From Eubacteriales bacterium (GTDB lineage Bacteria > Bacillota > Clostridia > Oscillospirales > CAG-272): 64,000 nucleotides of DNA. Numbering within the stretch: position 1 is the first letter of the stretch; each line of letters opens with the position of its first letter. The stretch spans positions 3,059-67,058 of the forward strand of contig JBGVQK010000054.1 in NCBI GenBank assembly GCA_045127455.1. Reading direction: 5' to 3'. Below, piece by piece: positions 1,425 through 36,819 of the stretch. The notes beneath the pieces were generated by a model. That model worked only from the letters and a program-made list of their open reading frames with translations, was not told the origin of the DNA and made no database searches. A program made the translations under genes and the position numbers.

Positions 1425-3185
1425 TCAGTTTGCAGGAACAAGCTCAATGCTTGCGGTTGTGCCATCGTATGTGAATCTAACCTTGTAATTTCCGGTGGTT
1501 TTTACAACGATATTCGTTCCGTTTAAAACACCGTTTTCGCCAAAGTTAACATCCCACGATGCGTTTTTGCGCACCTTAAATTCCTTCCCCGCCTCGAGCG
1601 CGAGAACGTCGGACTCCCAAACGCCTTCAGCTACTTTGCTCAAAGGAATGTCGATACTCCATTCGGTGTTACAAATGTTGCCGATAACGCTCCAACCATC
1701 TTTTACTTTATTTACCTCTTCAAACGCATCCGTAAGCGTTTTTTCGTATGTGGCAAGAGCAGTGGCAAGGTCGGCATCTGTTTTAGCTGCTTCGGCATCT
1801 TCGGCAAGCATTTTGGCGATATCCCACCAGTTAGCAAAGAATTGAGGTTGTGGAATTGCATAATTGTTTTGTTTAGTAAGGGCTACCATAGAGGCATCCG
1901 CCATAACAGCCTCAGACTGTTGTGCTGCAAGATTAGAAGGACACCATTCAAAACGATTAAATCTTTCAAGCTGGCAGGCTTCACTTGTCAAATACTCGGC
2001 AAGGCGAGAAAGAACAGTCGCCTTCTTGGCATCGGTTTGGGGCTTGACACCCATAAGCTTGTGACCCGAGTAAGAACCGAGATGGTAGGACTTACCGTCA
2101 ACAGTAAAGGAAGGCAGATCGATTGCTCCGAGATTTTGACCAAAATGCTCCATAGCGGCATATTTATTCCAAACGCCGGTGACGATAACACCTGCGTCGG
2201 TGAAAATATCAGCGTTGGAATCGTAGCAAGAAGATTGAACGATCTTTTGCATCCCCTTCATAGCGATAAGACCGTTAGCGGAGTTAAAGGTATCATCAAA
2301 CGCTACAAATTTGCCTTCGGCATCCATCTCCCACTTAGAATGGCAACCCGTAGCCATGAAGAAGGAAGAAGAGTACCATGCGTTTCCAAGAGCAAAGCGG
2401 AACTTTTTGTTGTTCTTTTCGCAAGCTGCGATAAGTGCTTCAAGGCTTTCGGCATCTTCGGGAGAAATGATACTCGTATCATAATACATATAATATCCGT
2501 TCTCGCTGGTCATGGGATACGCATAAACGGTGCCGTTATAGGTTGCTGCCGCTACCGAGCCCTTATCGTTATTGGCAATAATATCATCGGCAACACTTTG
2601 CTCGGGCGCCATCAATACCTGCGACTGAACCAAACACGGGAGCATATCCTGCGTAAAGCAGTAGATTTCGGGAGCGTTTTCCGGATTTTTAATAATCATG
2701 AATCCTGCGGCTGCCTCGGTAACGCACTCAATTTTAGCGTTGATAACAATGCCGGGGTTCTCTTCCATAAAGTTTTCGATCTGTTGTCTAAACTGGTCAT
2801 CAACGCCATATTTTTCGGAAACCCAAAGTGTAACAGGGTAGGTTAAAACACCGCACATTGTGCATTCGCCGTTAGCCGTGCTATGGGGGATCTTATTGAT
2901 CTTTTTTTGTGGAATCAAAACCTCACCGCAATCAGAGCAATGTCTGCCCTCGGTAAGACCTGCGGCCGTGCAGGTGGGAGCAACTCCCTCGTCGATAATG
3001 ACAGTATGCTCGTGCGCGCTTGGCGTAGTTTCATCACTGCCGTTTGGCTTTTCGGTAGGTGTTGTCGTTGGCGTTGTTTGAGTGCTGCCATCCTTCATGG
3101 CGGGGTCATTGCACGCGGTAAGCATCAGTACACTCATCAATAAAACCAAGCACACAATGCACGCGATTTGAATTGTTTTTTTCAT
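1425..3185 (-). CDS. Extracellular sugar (maltodextrin-type) solute-binding lipoprotein with N-terminal Cys/His module and C-terminal SusE/SusF-like carbohydrate-binding module
   Basis: Lipobox LTAC; Thr-rich linker; PTCTAAG..HCSDCG..CTMCG module; MalE-like core (YAYPMTSENGYYMYY, VTGVWN, GSYSGHKLMGV); C-terminal WSVIG..W..EFKVRKNASWDVNFG. Confidence 0.75.
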   Translation of the reverse strand: MKKTIQIACIVCLVLLMSVLMLTACNDPAMKDGSTQTTPTTTPTEKPNGSDETTPSAHEHTVIIDEGVAPTCTAAGLTEGRHCSDCGEVLIPQKKINKIPHSTANGECTMCGVLTYPVTLWVSEKYGVDDQFRQQIENFMEENPGIVINAKIECVTEAAAGFMIIKNPENAPEIYCFTQDMLPCLVQSQVLMAPEQSVADDIIANNDKGSVAAATYNGTVYAYPMTSENGYYMYYDTSIISPEDAESLEALIAACEKNNKKFRFALGNAWYSSSFFMATGCHSKWEMDAEGKFVAFDDTFNSANGLIAMKGMQKIVQSSCYDSNADIFTDAGVIVTGVWNKYAAMEHFGQNLGAIDLPSFTVDGKSYHLGSYSGHKLMGVKPQTDAKKATVLSRLAEYLTSEACQLERFNRFEWCPSNLAAQQSEAVMADASMVALTKQNNYAIPQPQFFANWWDIAKMLAEDAEAAKTDADLATALATYEKTLTDAFEEVNKVKDGWSVIGNICNTEWSIDIPLSKVAEGVWESDVLALEAGKEFKVRKNASWDVNFGENGVLNGTNIVVKTTGNYKVRFTYDGTTASIELVPAN

Positions 3186-27190: not shown

Positions 27191-27216
27191 AGCCCCGAGG
27201 ATTTTTCCTCGGGGCT
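27191..27216. terminator. Bidirectional terminator between nadE and the SipW locus
   Basis: AGCCCCGAGG..CCTCGGGGCT, preceded by an A-tract and followed by a T-rich tail. Confidence 0.75.
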
Positions 27217-27225
27217 TGGTTTTTG

Positions 27226-27768
27226 TTATTGAACTGCAGTGATTTGATTGTTGGTAACGGTTACACCCCAGCTGCTTTGTGCGGCTTCTGCAGGGTTCGC
27301 CTGAATGGCTTCGGCAAACACATCAATGACCTGTCTGCAACCGTCCTCGCTTTTTAGAGTGAGTTTTTGCCCATTCAATAAGTCGCTTGTTTTGGTTCCC
27401 ACCGCAAGCGGTGCCCTGTAATAATAGGTATCGCTATTTGCAGACTTGATCCAATCATCCCCAAGCGTAAAGCTTATGGGTTCGGGTGCTTTGTTGATCA
27501 CATTGCCGCTTGCATCAACCCAATAGGTTACCAATCGCACACGAACAAACACATCAATATTGCTGTTGCTGTTATCGTTTGTAACGGTAATGTTGGATTT
27601 TTGGTTGGCGTCAAAGGTTTCCTCAAGCTTGCAAGAAACCTTTGCGGGAGCAAAACCGCCTGTTTCCAGCTCGGAAATTTTGATCATATAGGCAACAACT
27701 CCACCAACTGTTCCGGCGAACAGAACAGAGCAAATAATGATAATTGCAATCAGTTTTTGTTTTGCCAT
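27226..27768 (-). CDS. SipW-class secreted protein (TasA/BsaA-like minor subunit)
   Basis: Signal ends GTVGGVVAYM (GxxxAY/F type); F.PAKV..EETFD..K.NITV.N; DVFVRVRLV..W; EAIQA. Confidence 0.72.
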   Translation of the reverse strand: MAKQKLIAIIIICSVLFAGTVGGVVAYMIKISELETGGFAPAKVSCKLEETFDANQKSNITVTNDNSNSNIDVFVRVRLVTYWVDASGNVINKAPEPISFTLGDDWIKSANSDTYYYRAPLAVGTKTSDLLNGQKLTLKSEDGCRQVIDVFAEAIQANPAEAAQSSWGVTVTNNQITAVQ

Positions 27769-32563: not shown

Positions 32564-33205
32564 TTAATTATTTTTGACCGAATCCCACGCTTCGGTCGCG
32601 TTTTCAAAGCCGATGCTTTGCACAGCAATGGCTTTGACGGAAATAGAAATGTCCCCGCCTGTTTTTAAAGCGGAAAGATCGGCTGCGGTTGCCTGATTAC
32701 TGATGGCAACACCTCCGTTTACGCCGTTTTGATTGGTAAAGATTTGAACATCGGCAAGCACTACGTTGGGATCAAGTGCTCGATAGAACACAAATTTGTC
32801 GCCGTCGGTTATCAGGTGGGTCCAATCACTGTTGACCCCGAGAGTTGCAATTTCTTTTTCACCGTGCTTAATTTTCAGCATGTTCTCTGCGTACGTCCAA
32901 TGCTCTGAAGGTGTGATTACAACAAACACAAAGGTTGCCGATTCACTACCGGCAAAATCTAATTTAACTTCGTTTTTGGCAGTAATGCCAGGGGAAAGGA
33001 TGAGGTAGTTGTCGCCGGGTTGTGTAAGGGTAATATCGCCAAAGCGGATAACTCTTGCGCTGGCGGAGCTTGTGTTTTTGCTGATATAACGCGCGTAAAG
33101 CCCGTTGATAGCATAGGAAGAAAGCAGTACCGCGCACAAAAGCAAGAGGGCTACGTGCATCGTTGAAAACAGCGGTGCTTTATTATTCGATTTTAAAAAT
33201 TTCAT
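32564..33205 (-). CDS. SipW-class secreted protein (TasA-like minor subunit)
   Basis: NGLYARY then ARVIRF; ILSPG; shares its pattern with the 35091-35723 product. Confidence 0.75.
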   Translation of the reverse strand: MKFLKSNNKAPLFSTMHVALLLLCAVLLSSYAINGLYARYISKNTSSASARVIRFGDITLTQPGDNYLILSPGITAKNEVKLDFAGSESATFVFVVITPSEHWTYAENMLKIKHGEKEIATLGVNSDWTHLITDGDKFVFYRALDPNVVLADVQIFTNQNGVNGGVAISNQATAADLSALKTGGDISISVKAIAVQSIGFENATEAWDSVKNN

Positions 33206-33226: not shown

Positions 33227-33832
33227 TTAGTTTTCTTCCTTATTATTTATATCGGTGGTTTCTTGTGGGGGTTCGGCATCCTTTTTGAGTTCTTCGATCT
33301 CGCGGCGAATGGCGGCAAGCTCTTCGGCTTTTTTGTCTTTTTCCTTTTTAAAGGATGCTTCCAAGAGCCAAACGGCAGCGCCAAGCAAAAGGATGGTGCC
33401 AAACGGGGTTTTGATAAGATTGACGATGAGACCGATAAACGGAATGGCGAAAATGACCTTTCCCTTTATGTTCTCTTTTGCAATGGGGTCATCATCTGTA
33501 TTGTTTGCGTCACCGCGCGTGATGATCTTATCGCCGTTGATTGCGACGATGCGATGCACCACGGCAGTTCGCTGGGTTTGATAAACGACTACGTCGCCAA
33601 CCTCGTAGGTATCGGATGGGGTGACGATTAAAAGGTCGTCGACCGAAAGCTCAGGTTCCATGCTGCCCGAAAGAACGACCGTCATGCCAAAGCCAAACGG
33701 CATTGGGAGCGCGTTGCCGCCAAGCATGCTTGCATTGATTGAATAAATGCTAACACCAATAAGGACAGCCAACAGAACGAGAACCGAAATTCGAATAACT
33801 GATTTCAGTTGAATTTTCAAAACAAACTCCAA
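33227..33832 (-). CDS. sipW: Signal peptidase I, SipW (ER-type, Ser-His)
   Basis: VVLSGSMEP (Ser), VVHRIV (His), TRGDANNTDD, C-terminal TM. Confidence 0.93.
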   Translation of the reverse strand: MEFVLKIQLKSVIRISVLVLLAVLIGVSIYSINASMLGGNALPMPFGFGMTVVLSGSMEPELSVDDLLIVTPSDTYEVGDVVVYQTQRTAVVHRIVAINGDKIITRGDANNTDDDPIAKENIKGKVIFAIPFIGLIVNLIKTPFGTILLLGAAVWLLEASFKKEKDKKAEELAAIRREIEELKKDAEPPQETTDINNKEEN

Positions 33833-33838
33833 TTAACT

Positions 33839-34912
33839 TTATGAAATAACTACGGCACCGCCCGCCGAGGCGACAATGCGCTTTGCATCGGCAGAAGCAC
33901 TGTTTACAAAGATAACAAGCGGTTTTGTGAGAACAAAGTTGGGACTTGCCGTAAGGTGGATGCTGCTTGTATTAACAGGCACCAAGCCTCTTCTCTTTAA
34001 GGTTGCGAGGTTGATAACTGCAGCTCCATGGAAGTTTGCCGCCAACATTTCGAGGGTAATGGTTTGCGTGCTGCTGGGGGCTTCTTTCTTTTCTTCCTTG
34101 GGAGCAGGAACAAATTCGGGATCCACGATTCCTGCAAGTGCTTCCTTGCGCTTCTTAACGATTACAGCAATGGTAACGATTGCAGATATAAGAAGAATGC
34201 CTGCCGCCATTGCAAGGGCGAGGTTCTTGCCCATATCGGGGTGCCCCTCCCAACCGCCGTTGGCATCCAACGTGGTGTTTGCTACTGCGTGGAAGGTAAA
34301 GGAGATCTCAACGCCAACGTCTCTATCCTGATTGCCGAGCTCGGTATCAAAGCCGTCGTTTCCGCTCTCATAGGGCCATTGCCATTCAAAAACGTATTCG
34401 GCTGCTTTGGTCTTTTCGAGCGTGCCCGTGTGGCTGAGGCTTCTCAAATCCTGCAGGGTTGCCCATTGTTCATCGGAGCCGAGAACGTACTCGCCATCAG
34501 AGGTTTTCATTTTGACTTGCAGCGGAACCTGATATCTGGTGGAGAAAACGACCTTTGGCTTGAGCTCATAATCAAGCGCGTATTCGTCGGCATTGCGCAA
34601 ACGAACGGTGTAGGAAGAACCCGAGCCGGGGGCTATGACCTTATTCTCGTTGTTACTTTGAATAATGACTTCGCCGGATTCGTTTGTGTATTGGAGAGCA
34701 AAAAGGTGAACTTTGGCATCGTTGCCTACCTCAATTGTCACCTCGCGCTTATCCTGCTGTGCGTAGTCGGCAATGCGAATGCCGAGAAGAATGGTTGAGA
34801 GGAGCAAAAGCGTAATGGTAACAACCAAAAAGATGCGTTGCTTGTTGGATACCTGCAGCTTTTCCAATTCAAGGTCACTATTCACTTTTGTAGAGGCTTT
34901 TTCTTGTGCCAT
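33839..34912 (-). CDS. Two-TM protein: TasA-like extracellular domain plus a cytoplasmic uL15-like domain (putative filament base)
   Basis: TM1 IFLVVTITLLLLSTILLG; VIAPGSGSSYTVRLRN and YVFEWQWPYE; TM2 followed by KKRK; C-terminal LTKPLVIFVNSASADAKRIVASAGG, resembling the L15 C-domain. Confidence 0.72.
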   Translation of the reverse strand: MAQEKASTKVNSDLELEKLQVSNKQRIFLVVTITLLLLSTILLGIRIADYAQQDKREVTIEVGNDAKVHLFALQYTNESGEVIIQSNNENKVIAPGSGSSYTVRLRNADEYALDYELKPKVVFSTRYQVPLQVKMKTSDGEYVLGSDEQWATLQDLRSLSHTGTLEKTKAAEYVFEWQWPYESGNDGFDTELGNQDRDVGVEISFTFHAVANTTLDANGGWEGHPDMGKNLALAMAAGILLISAIVTIAVIVKKRKEALAGIVDPEFVPAPKEEKKEAPSSTQTITLEMLAANFHGAAVINLATLKRRGLVPVNTSSIHLTASPNFVLTKPLVIFVNSASADAKRIVASAGGAVVIS

Positions 34913-35090: not shown

Positions 35091-35723
35091 TTAGTCACCG
35101 AGTTGGGTTACTTCTACAGAGCAAGTAAAGCTGATTTCGGGAGCAGGATTAAGCTTGCCAAGTTTGGTATCGCTTGCATTGTCACCCTCGAATGCCCATG
35201 CCCAAGAAACGGAAAGACTGCTCGCAAGAGTAGCATTAGCTGCTACTTCTGCCTTACTGAGAGCAGTGAACTTAGCTTCAACAGCTGCTTCAAGTTCTTC
35301 AAGAGTATCGATTTCGCCTTCCATCTTGATTTCCTCAGCGCCTACGGTGAATACGATAGGACAATATACGGTATCGGTATCAATTACCCATCCTGTGAGT
35401 TCGAGGTCAGCGGTTACAACAACCTTAACCTTAACTTCGGTGGTACCAGAAATACTAACGCCACCAAGAACGCCTTCAGTACCGGGAGCAACAACTTTTA
35501 CACCAGTTTCAGAGGAGATTACATCACCATCTTCATAATTGGTCAAAAAAGCAGTTTCACCGATAGCGTCTACAGTAACACCCCACTTTGCTACGCGAGC
35601 AGTTTCGAGAGCGGTACTATCGGTTGTGGTATACTTTGCGAACGTGCCGGAAATAGCACAGGTTGTCATAAGAACTGCTACCAAAAGAGCGGAAGCAACT
35701 CTCATCATTACGTTTTTCTTCAT
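35091..35723 (-). CDS. SipW-class TasA/CalY-like protein, probable major filament subunit
   Basis: ISGTFAKY, ARVAKW, VVAPGT, WAWAFE; strongly biased codon usage (many GCT/GTT/GAA) suggests high expression; flanked by stem-loops. Confidence 0.85.
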   Translation of the reverse strand: MKKNVMMRVASALLVAVLMTTCAISGTFAKYTTTDSTALETARVAKWGVTVDAIGETAFLTNYEDGDVISSETGVKVVAPGTEGVLGGVSISGTTEVKVKVVVTADLELTGWVIDTDTVYCPIVFTVGAEEIKMEGEIDTLEELEAAVEAKFTALSKAEVAANATLASSLSVSWAWAFEGDNASDTKLGKLNPAPEISFTCSVEVTQLGD

Positions 35724-35941: not shown

Positions 35942-36721
35942 TTACTCCTGCTTGGGTTGTTCAGCTTGAGGAGTAGGCTCGGGGGCTGCTTCGGGTGCGG
36001 GTTGCGTTTCAACCTTTTCCTCTGCCTTGACCTCTTCGGCGGCATCAGCCTTTGCTTGTGCGCTGACCTCGGCTGCCTTGGCTTTTTCTGCCTTGAGTGC
36101 CTCAAGCTCGGCGCGGAGAGCATCAACGTCTTCGGTCTTGCCCTTTTCGTACATCTTGCGGCGGATAACGTCGTATCCAACAAACAGAAGAATGGGAACG
36201 ACTACGCAAACGATAAGTCCGCCCGGCTTTTGCATTGCCATTGCAAGGTTGCCTGCACCGCCAATGCGGAAGTCATCCCATTTGCCAACGATCTTATCTG
36301 CCTCGCGGAGCTTGCCGTCGGGTGTGGGGTTGTTGATACCTTGCGTTCTGAATTTTACTTCACCGTTCTCTTCGATAACCTCGATTACCTTGTGAGTCCA
36401 AATGGTTGTGTAATTATCCTCGGCTGCGTAGAAGGAAATAACCGTTCCAACCTCAATTTCGCTGGGGTCCACTTCCTTTACAATGATGAGGTCGCCCTTT
36501 TTGATATCGGGATACATAGAATCTGAAAGGACGATGAGCGGAACAACGCCCGCAAAATCGGGCACCTCGTTTTTGTTGATAAAGCTCTTGATAATGAGCG
36601 TGCAGTTGACTATGAGAATGGGTACTAAAATGACGCACAAAACGATGCCAATGATTGTGAGCGTTCTTTGCTTTTTATCTACCGCTTGATTTTGAACGTT
36701 TGATTTTTCGTTCGTCGACAT
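35942..36721 (-). CDS. sipW: Signal peptidase I, SipW paralog with an Ala/Glu/Pro-rich tail
   Basis: IVLSDSMYP (Ser), WTHKVI (His), RTQGINNPTPD, C-terminal TM. Confidence 0.9.
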   Translation of the reverse strand: MSTNEKSNVQNQAVDKKQRTLTIIGIVLCVILVPILIVNCTLIIKSFINKNEVPDFAGVVPLIVLSDSMYPDIKKGDLIIVKEVDPSEIEVGTVISFYAAEDNYTTIWTHKVIEVIEENGEVKFRTQGINNPTPDGKLREADKIVGKWDDFRIGGAGNLAMAMQKPGGLIVCVVVPILLFVGYDVIRRKMYEKGKTEDVDALRAELEALKAEKAKAAEVSAQAKADAAEEVKAEEKVETQPAPEAAPEPTPQAEQPKQE

Positions 36722-36790: not shown

Positions 36791-36819
36791 ATTTTATCAC
36801 TTTTTCATCACAATGTCAA
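36791..36819 (-). promoter_or_regulatory. SigA promoter of the SipW locus
   Basis: TTGACA-17-TAAAAT with extended TG, inside an AT-rich intergenic region. Confidence 0.7.

Follow-up and report, generated by a model that had tools for sequence, protein, structure and literature searches.

A TasA-like surface-fiber protein from a sortase-free gut clostridial lineage carries a uL15-like C-terminal tail, a candidate cytoplasmic docking foot

Why would a protein that appears to belong to a surface fiber end, on the inner side of the membrane, in a piece of a ribosomal protein? The question is raised by a gene at positions 33839 to 34912 on the minus strand of a 64,000-nucleotide (nt) stretch of DNA from a Eubacteriales bacterium (the window; positions 3,059 to 67,058 of contig JBGVQK010000054.1). 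These coordinates correspond to exactly one open reading frame (ORF), which has an ATG start and encodes 357 amino acids (aa), and we refer to its product as the anchor. An earlier interpretation from the letters alone (the sequence-only reading) had proposed a filament base protein with a cytoplasmic uL15-like domain. From the comparisons and structure models described below, we favor, with moderate confidence, a view of the anchor as a membrane-anchored fiber base with a uL15-like cytoplasmic docking foot. Its parts, from the N terminus, are as follows.

34835 to 34912, minus strand: predicted cytoplasmic N-terminal segment, residues 1 to 26, with five Lys/Arg residues
34778 to 34834, minus strand: first transmembrane helix (TM1), residues 27 to 45, a signal or signal-anchor without the SGTFAKY of the free subunits
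34247 to 34777, minus strand: predicted extracellular TasA-like jelly-roll, residues 46 to 222, with VIAPGSG (residues 92 to 98) and FEWQWPYESGNDGFDTELGN (residues 175 to 194), assigned by BLASTP, the AlphaFold model and the Foldseek match to TasA 5of1_B
34223 to 34246, minus strand: GHPDMGKN, residues 223 to 230, the decayed sortase-motif position (xPxTGD in relatives)
34157 to 34222, minus strand: second transmembrane helix (TM2), residues 231 to 252, which descends from the hydrophobic part of a cell-wall sorting signal
34145 to 34156, minus strand: KKRK, residues 253 to 256, basic stop-transfer cluster on the predicted cytoplasmic side
34073 to 34144, minus strand: variable Pro/Glu/Lys linker, residues 257 to 280 (24 aa), with a predicted local distance difference test score (pLDDT) below 50 at residues 265 to 274 and the most variable region of the protein
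33842 to 34072, minus strand: uL15 C-domain-like tail, residues 281 to 357 (77 aa), with the PF00828 match at residues 295 to 355 (33848 to 34030)

We compared the tail with ribosomal protein uL15 by profile and by structure. The Pfam model PF00828 matched anchor residues 295 to 355 with an E value of 2.3e-6 (28.4 bits versus a gathering score of 21.5), and TIGR01071 (rplO) was matched by 17 of the 26 aligned family members, with a best E value of 6.6e-11. A profile of 16 tails searched against solved structures aligned best to the E. faecalis uL15 chain 6o8w_M, over residues 75 to 143 of 146 (E 5e-14), and 60/60 among the matches listed were uL15/eL18-family ribosome chains. A single-sequence phmmer search of the PDB with the whole anchor gave no match, and sequence matches there came from the tail profile only. 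AlphaFold2 modeled the tail with pLDDT values of 92 to 97, and the top Foldseek matches of the tail in the PDB were uL15 chains (probability 1.00), with root mean square deviations of 2.4 to 2.9 Å over 77 to 80 columns for 9tvu_L and 4v8a_AP. The sequence-only reading had lined up the last ~70 aa by eye with the uL15 C-domain pattern, and both the profile searches and the structure prediction with Foldseek bore out that alignment. These results confirm that the anchor tail is a true homologue of the uL15 C-terminal globular domain, and like that domain it lies at the extreme C terminus of its protein.

We also considered whether the gene could encode ribosomal uL15 itself and rejected this candidate. 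The true rplO of this genome encodes 149 aa and lies directly upstream of secY on another contig (C44), while the anchor gene lies in a sipW operon and not in the spc operon. Against the full-length TIGR01071 model, the anchor scored 18.7 bits versus a cut-off of 77.95, and only model positions 67 to 143 matched. The Gly/Lys/Arg-rich N-terminal extension of uL15 (the KGHKGQ region), which threads into rRNA, is missing, and the ectodomain and transmembrane (TM) segment stand in its place; the domain is tethered to a TM helix. A joint alignment showed that the tails keep the conserved uL15 positions F..G, KvL, L.K, FS..A and AGG and have near-invariant residues of their own (LK..GLvP and LAR). 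One branch with 99% support splits all tails from 14 Clostridia uL15 C-domains, and the anchor tails are more basic, with a median net charge of +4 versus 0 for the lineage's own uL15 C-domains.

The ectodomain relates the anchor to the subunits encoded beside it. BLASTP aligned it with the 210-aa neighboring subunit across nearly its whole length (E 2e-4), and the alignment contains the pairs VIAPGS/VVAPGT and FEWQWPYESGNDGFDTELGN/SVSWAWAFEGDNASDTKLGK, which agrees with the IAPG and WxW motifs that the sequence-only reading had picked out in both proteins. The AlphaFold2 model of the whole anchor (score, 78.5; predicted template modeling score, 0.49) fits a beads-on-a-string layout, and its ectodomain matched TasA 5of1_B in Foldseek with an E value of 1.4e-3 and a probability of 0.99, with other jelly-rolls scoring similarly. 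The curated TasA, camelysin, TapA and BsaA models in Pfam and NCBIfam did not match the anchor at an E value of ≤1, and neither the ectodomain nor the free subunits had a significant Pfam or NCBIfam match. We therefore use the term TasA-like on the grounds of fold, locus and paralogy and not of a family-model match. The SipW-cognate signal SGTFAKY is present in all free subunits and absent from the N terminus of the anchor. These results support the conclusion that the anchor is a paralogue of a TasA-like fiber subunit that is held in the membrane.

The second TM segment and the basic cluster that follows it indicate how relatives of the anchor are fixed to the cell. The LPXTG_anchor model TIGR01167 matches distant members of the family, and TM2 followed by KKRK in the window anchor aligns with these LPXTG_anchor-positive relatives. 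Among the 63 members outside the clade that carries the tail, 43 have PxTG and 7 have xTGD/E before TM2 (50/63 in all; LPKTG, SPKTG, VPQTG, PPKTG and so on), versus 0/20 inside the tail clade. The window anchor has GHPDMGKN where its relatives have the sortase motif. As judged from these alignments, TM2 and the basic cluster make up a cell-wall sorting signal in most family members, and most relatives are probably attached to the cell wall. Since most relatives carry such a signal, the idea of a filament base protein gains support. The same homology places the ectodomain outside the cell and everything from KKRK onward inside, and the positive-inside charge count for the anchor agrees. A cytoplasmic position of the tail, as the sequence-only reading had predicted from the TM segment (residues 231 to 252) and KKRK (residues 253 to 256) in front of it, is thus supported by the charges and more strongly by the sorting-signal homology.

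Decay of the sorting motif coincides with the absence of sortase. No sortase (PF04203) was found in the genomes of the tail clade (0/18, the anchor's own genome and 17 others), whereas 20/20 genomes with PxTG anchors have one. Conversely, an extra PF00828 copy is present in the anchor's own genome and in 17/17 other tail-clade genomes versus 0/20 PxTG-anchor genomes. The anchor's own genome (G000), which had no PF04203 match, is 94.9% complete. Within its genus, sortase was found in 0/25 genomes and an extra uL15-like copy in nearly all 25; in 16 other families of the same order, sortase was found in 14/16 and an extra uL15-like copy in 0/16. The decay of the motif and the gain of the tail took place in a sortase-free setting.

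The anchor gene is the third of seven co-oriented genes on the minus strand. The features of this operon, in the direction of transcription, are as follows.

36791 to 36819, minus strand: promoter-like site upstream of sipW-A, TTGACA-17-TAAAAT with TG; 11/12 matches, the best in the region, a consensus match only
35942 to 36721, minus strand: sipW-A, signal peptidase I of the endoplasmic reticulum (ER)/archaeal type, 259 aa, with a C-terminal TM helix and a charged tail; TIGR02228, 94.5 bits (cut-off, 51.85); SipW model, E 3.6e-24
35091 to 35723, minus strand: free TasA-like fiber subunit 1, 210 aa, with an SGTFAKY SipW-type signal that is conserved in the free subunits of related loci; homologous to the anchor ectodomain (BLASTP E 2e-4)
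33839 to 34912, minus strand: two-TM anchor with the uL15-like tail, 357 aa, described by its ORF, domain matches, homologues, alignment and model
33227 to 33832, minus strand: sipW-B, 201 aa, starting 6 bp past the anchor stop; TIGR02228, 86.9 bits; pairing with the anchor kept in 77/83 loci
32564 to 33205, minus strand: free TasA-like subunit 2, 213 aa, with no Pfam or NCBIfam match and an orthologue in locus L005
27770 to 32548, minus strand: secreted adhesin, 1,592 aa, with Listeria-Bacteroides repeats (PF09479, E 3.7e-10)
27226 to 27768, minus strand: small subunit 3, 180 aa; its L005 orthologue matches TIGR04090 (BsaA family) with E 4.9e-5, below the cut-off
27191 to 27216, minus strand: strong bidirectional terminator-like hairpin of 11 pairs, 8 of them GC

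The promoter-like site is the likely start of the operon and the hairpin its likely end. Both signal peptidases of the window score well over the TIGR02228 cut-off and are of the archaeal/ER type, which is the SipW type, and both have long charged C-terminal extensions after the last TM helix. The adhesin has a Sec-type signal and lacks a TM segment, a sorting motif and a uL15 tail, and its attachment to the cell is presumably through the fiber. In the relative L009, the adhesin module is absent from an otherwise syntenic locus.

We collected relatives of the anchor in two ways. A word-indexed protein search returned 41 relatives; the majority have the tail, and some shorter ones lack it. A scan of species genomes for the ectodomain motifs gave 80 loci from metagenome-assembled genomes of gut and rumen Clostridia, to which three metagenome loci were added. 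The family thus comprises at least 83 loci, in which the genes run sipW, free subunit, anchor, sipW, and the anchor has an N-terminal TM segment, an ectodomain and a C-terminal TM segment in 83/83 of them. A second sipW gene lies upstream of the anchor in 69 loci and two sipW genes are present in 66/83; short contigs account for most of the loci with fewer. Most loci have a free subunit gene immediately upstream of the anchor, and in most loci the hidden Markov model of the ectodomain matches the free subunits. SGTFAKY is near-invariant in the free subunits of related loci, and the anchors have a different N terminus, so that each SipW paralogue may serve one class of substrate, the free subunit or the anchor. 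The sequence-only reading had tied uL15-fused membrane proteins to sipW loci. This association holds for the anchor family, where a sipW gene starts less than 100 bp downstream of the anchor in 77/83 loci, and is not general among tail proteins at large, where SipW-locus anchors make up 12 of the 150 best clusters described below.

The tail itself is an optional part of the family. It is present in 17/81 complete anchors, and 58/81 end 5 to 44 residues past the TM segment. Five anchors of a sister clade (L045, L059, L062, L071 and L074) have a different conserved tail of ~150 aa (WRTPVYVTGF...), which had no Pfam match and seems to be another addition, made independently, at this C-terminal position. 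At L019 (6796 to 7067), a stop and a frameshift break up the uL15 tail and AGG has decayed to NGD, which reflects either a pseudogenized tail or an assembly error. On the ectodomain tree the tail bearers form one clade, and one gain and one loss (L020/L021) suffice. The proposal that a fiber subunit is wired across the membrane to a uL15 fold therefore stands as to the membrane paralogue and the uL15 homologue, and must be qualified as to generality: the wiring is confined to 17/81 anchors, with one further tail frameshifted and one subclade having lost it.

Where the tail is present, it is conserved. The fusion is kept in 17 genomes with ectodomain identities down to about 33%, and the 17 tail-bearing homologues are as similar to the window anchor in the tail (52% identity) as in the ectodomain (55%), versus 38% in the linker. 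Within the species, we compared 15 near-identical 357-aa sequences from different assemblies, listed from a cluster of 41 members; several of these are present on multiple contigs. The tail was the least variable part of the anchor (n = 15), with 5.4% of its sites variable (ectodomain, 9.6%; linker, 16.7%). Linkers in relatives are about 25 to 75 aa long and PE-rich, which suggests that the tail reaches away from the membrane.

The tail is not restricted to fibers. Searching the tail profile against 1.84 billion cluster representatives gave 977 matches at an E value of ≤1e-10 and 3,726 at ≤1e-3, a tier that will include genuine uL15. The domain lies within 15 aa of the C terminus in 148 of the 150 best clusters, and a TM segment is detectable upstream in 93 of them. 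Protein lengths in these clusters range from 76 to 3,311 aa, and many of the short ones look like fragments. Because the TasA-like SipW-locus anchors are a minority here, the tail is a general membrane-protein module and not a fiber-specific one. Its net charge runs from -7 to +10 across the wider family, and the window tail bears the family signature (F..G, LK..GLvP, KvLAr, L.K, S..A, GG). Among these 150, 15 proteins of 1,200 to 1,654 aa lack the ~180-aa domain described next, and in 6/6 of their C termini that were read, TM helices directly precede the tail. We found no published description of a uL15-like or PF00828 domain on membrane proteins.

The anchor's own genome encodes a second tail-bearing protein, of 1,032 aa, on contig C70 (L004, 6986 to 10084, minus strand; PF00828, E 3.2e-7). 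It has N-terminal TM helices, long acidic linkers, a central domain of ~180 aa and an acidic tail; orthologues are present in nearly all 25 genomes of the genus, and its gene lies directly upstream of that for a 1,365-aa Listeria-Bacteroides-repeat surface protein with a C-terminal TM helix and an acidic tail. The central domain, which is shared by 41 of the 150 best clusters, was modeled with a pLDDT of 91 and had no Pfam match and no PDB sequence match. Only a weak YjbR/YdhG fold match was obtained, the best being E. coli YjbR (2fki; E 0.013, probability 1.00). Four giant tail-bearing surface proteins of 1,300 to 1,650 aa (P0079, P0080, P0094 and P0097) have in common another conserved cytoplasmic motif, VSAEEADSLISD..CRGCKKTFINVD, upstream of the tail, which the window anchor lacks. 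Four other proteins of 231 to 324 aa (P0059, P0072, P0102 and P0117) have a genuine uL15 N-terminal extension and two or three tandem C-domain copies and appear to be variants of ribosomal uL15 in which the globular domain is duplicated.

Taken together, we propose that the anchor is the cell-bound base paralogue of a SipW-processed TasA-like fiber. With no sortase gene in the genome and the motif decayed to GHPDMGKN, the hydrophobic segment and KKRK would therefore stay in place as a permanent membrane anchor. To its cytoplasmic end, a 77-residue copy of the uL15 C-domain, without the rRNA-threading extension, was added through a flexible linker, once, in the clade of the window. We infer that the tail acts as a docking foot for a conserved cytoplasmic partner, and such docking would fix, cluster or position a fiber base that cannot be linked to the wall. 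The constraint on the tail, its specific polar residues and the long PE-rich spacers of relatives argue for a specific partner at a distance from the membrane, as opposed to a plug. As for the nature of the partner, ancestry, the retained uL15 signature residues and the raised positive charge put RNA or a ribosomal particle ahead of any other single candidate, a tentative choice at best; a protein partner, although itself unlikely, would be nearly as probable.

Several observations weigh against this proposal or narrow its reach. By uL15 identity to the window's genome (91 to 99% within the genus, 71 to 82% for neighbors and 55 to 70% for other families), the tail-clade genomes form one lineage, and the link between sortase absence and the tail is therefore roughly one evolutionary event. 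An even sample of the class contained no other tail-bearing lineage (an extra copy in 0/149 other genomes, with G170 left unscored), and an even phylum sample of 300 genomes contained only a 159-aa frame in G330 and no further tail-bearing lineage. With no replicate lineage in these samples, the correlation of sortase and tail is a single-lineage observation. The L020/L021 genomes have lost the tail and are also sortase free, and their anchors have a C-terminal tail of 26 to 27 aa instead. The tail is dispensable for the fiber system as such, most anchors having none. Finally, the wide range of tail charges and the acidic second tail of the anchor's own genome argue against one universal polyanionic ligand. 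We rejected net charge as an argument against RNA binding, since the anchor tails carry more positive charge than true uL15 C-domains do, though the wider family is heterogeneous.

An explanation that takes the ancestry of the tail literally, and the main idea of the sequence-only reading, is a ribosome or rRNA tether: the tail would bind 23S rRNA in or close to the uL15 site, or a uL15-free pre-50S particle, and so hold ribosomes or polysomes at the membrane where the subunits are exported. In its favor, the tail is genuinely homologous to the uL15 C-domain, has kept most of the positions conserved in uL15 and is more basic than the ribosomal domain, and basic C-terminal tails of some YidC proteins do bind ribosomes. 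The pairing of the tail with a YjbR-like domain in 41 of the 150 best clusters also speaks for a nucleic acid, since databases label that fold as DNA binding, but the match is weak and the function of YjbR is itself unproven. However, the Gly/Lys/Arg-rich extension is missing from the tail, and the homologous site is occupied because the mature 50S subunit already carries the genome's own uL15. As the tail consists of the last 77 residues, it could not act during translation of its own chain. Its invariant residues differ from those of uL15, and some tails, including the second one of the same genome, are strongly acidic. Judged on these comparisons, we regard a ribosome tether of this kind as unlikely.

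Another alternative is a protein-docking or signaling module, which would bind a cytoplasmic or membrane protein such as the charged SipW C-terminal tails or a scaffold and would report or control fiber assembly from the cytoplasmic side. The tail family has invariant surface-type residues of its own that are absent in uL15 (LK, P and LAR), and charges spread from -7 to +10 are easier to reconcile with varied protein partners than with RNA. Both SipW paralogues offer long charged cytoplasmic extensions, and the C terminus of Bacillus subtilis SipW has a regulatory role that is independent of its peptidase activity. On the other hand, no conserved partner gene is specific to the tail-bearing loci, in which the gene order is the same as in tail-less loci, and the ORFs of the window place no two-component or kinase gene in the operon. 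A dedicated protein-docking role would be unlikely too.

A passive plug would be a folded domain, with no specific ligand, that only keeps the TM helix in place under load, so that it neither pulls out of the membrane nor slips through. In its favor, the tail is found precisely where covalent attachment to the wall has been lost, and the positional data (C-terminal in 148/150 clusters, with a TM segment upstream in 93/150) suit such a stopper. Yet a plug needs only a stable fold, whereas the tail is the least variable part of the anchor and conserves particular polar residues across large distances; a plug would have no use for long PE-rich spacers; and L020/L021 manage in sortase-free genomes with 26 to 27 aa. 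We consider a plug distinctly improbable. Mis-assembly, a mis-called fusion or a decaying, functionless domain, to which the frameshifted and degenerating L019 tail lends a point, has almost no probability left, and the conservation data in effect refute it: the protein is part of a 41-member cluster whose 15 listed members are all 357 aa long, several on multiple contigs, the fusion persists in 17 genomes at ectodomain identities down to about 33%, and the tail has the fewest variable sites.

The proposed membrane-anchored fiber base with its docking foot shares features with several known systems. In B. subtilis, TasA and TapA form donor-strand-exchange fibers processed by SipW (PMC9674648, PMC10151520). 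Like that system, the window locus has a dedicated SipW-type peptidase in the operon, jelly-roll subunits (Foldseek, TasA 5of1) and an accessory paralogue that presumably ties the fiber to the cell, as TapA does. It differs in having no sequence-family match to TasA, camelysin or TapA, in having two sipW genes, and in the makeup of the anchor, whose two TM segments and cytoplasmic domain are both lacking in the secreted TapA.

A clostridial SipW-dependent polymer is produced from the sipW-bsaABC locus of Clostridium perfringens, which has accessory subunit genes and an adjacent sortase gene, srtB; BsaA has no sorting motif and deletion of srtB had no effect (PMC7395162). The last small subunit of the present locus family weakly resembles BsaA through the subthreshold TIGR04090 match of the L005 orthologue. 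In contrast to the window locus, no two-TM anchor or uL15 tail is described there. Our search of the SipW and sortase literature found only C. perfringens BsaA described.

The anchor can also be set beside sortase substrates and the basal pilins of sortase-assembled pili. Its motif position, hydrophobic segment and basic cluster are homologous to sorting signals, and the logical role is the same, fixing the proximal end of a fiber to the cell. The sorting motif of Clostridioides difficile SrtB is of the (S/P)PxTG type. Unlike sortase substrates, the anchor has lost the motif (GHPDMGKN), its genome has no sortase, and its signal continues into a linker and a folded domain of 77 aa. YidC of some bacteria and eukaryotic ER ribosome receptors have unstructured basic C-terminal tails that bind ribosomes. 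The anchor likewise is a membrane protein with a basic extension at its cytoplasmic C terminus, which might touch the translation machinery; unlike those tails, this extension is a folded ribosomal-protein paralogue.

New in this locus are the decayed sorting signal, the single gain of the tail in the anchor family and the sortase-free background; the sequence-only reading had noticed neither the decayed signal nor the lack of sortase. Ribosomal-protein domains in nonribosomal jobs are rare, and we found no published case of one on the cytoplasmic end of a surface-fiber anchor. A more specific idea, which we think rather doubtful, is that a uL15 mimic docks on large-subunit rRNA (pre-50S or RNA resembling the uL15 site) and thereby anchors fibers and adhesins in one sortase-free lineage of gut Clostridia. 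If true, it would be a bacterial "ribosome receptor" that rivets the fiber base and places translation or export at the site of assembly. The locus raises the testable question of how sortase-free Gram-positive gut bacteria make up for the missing wall anchoring and whether RNA or ribosomes play a part. The tail also marks about a thousand clusters of uncharacterized, mostly membrane proteins from gut and rumen metagenomes, and one binding result could annotate the family.

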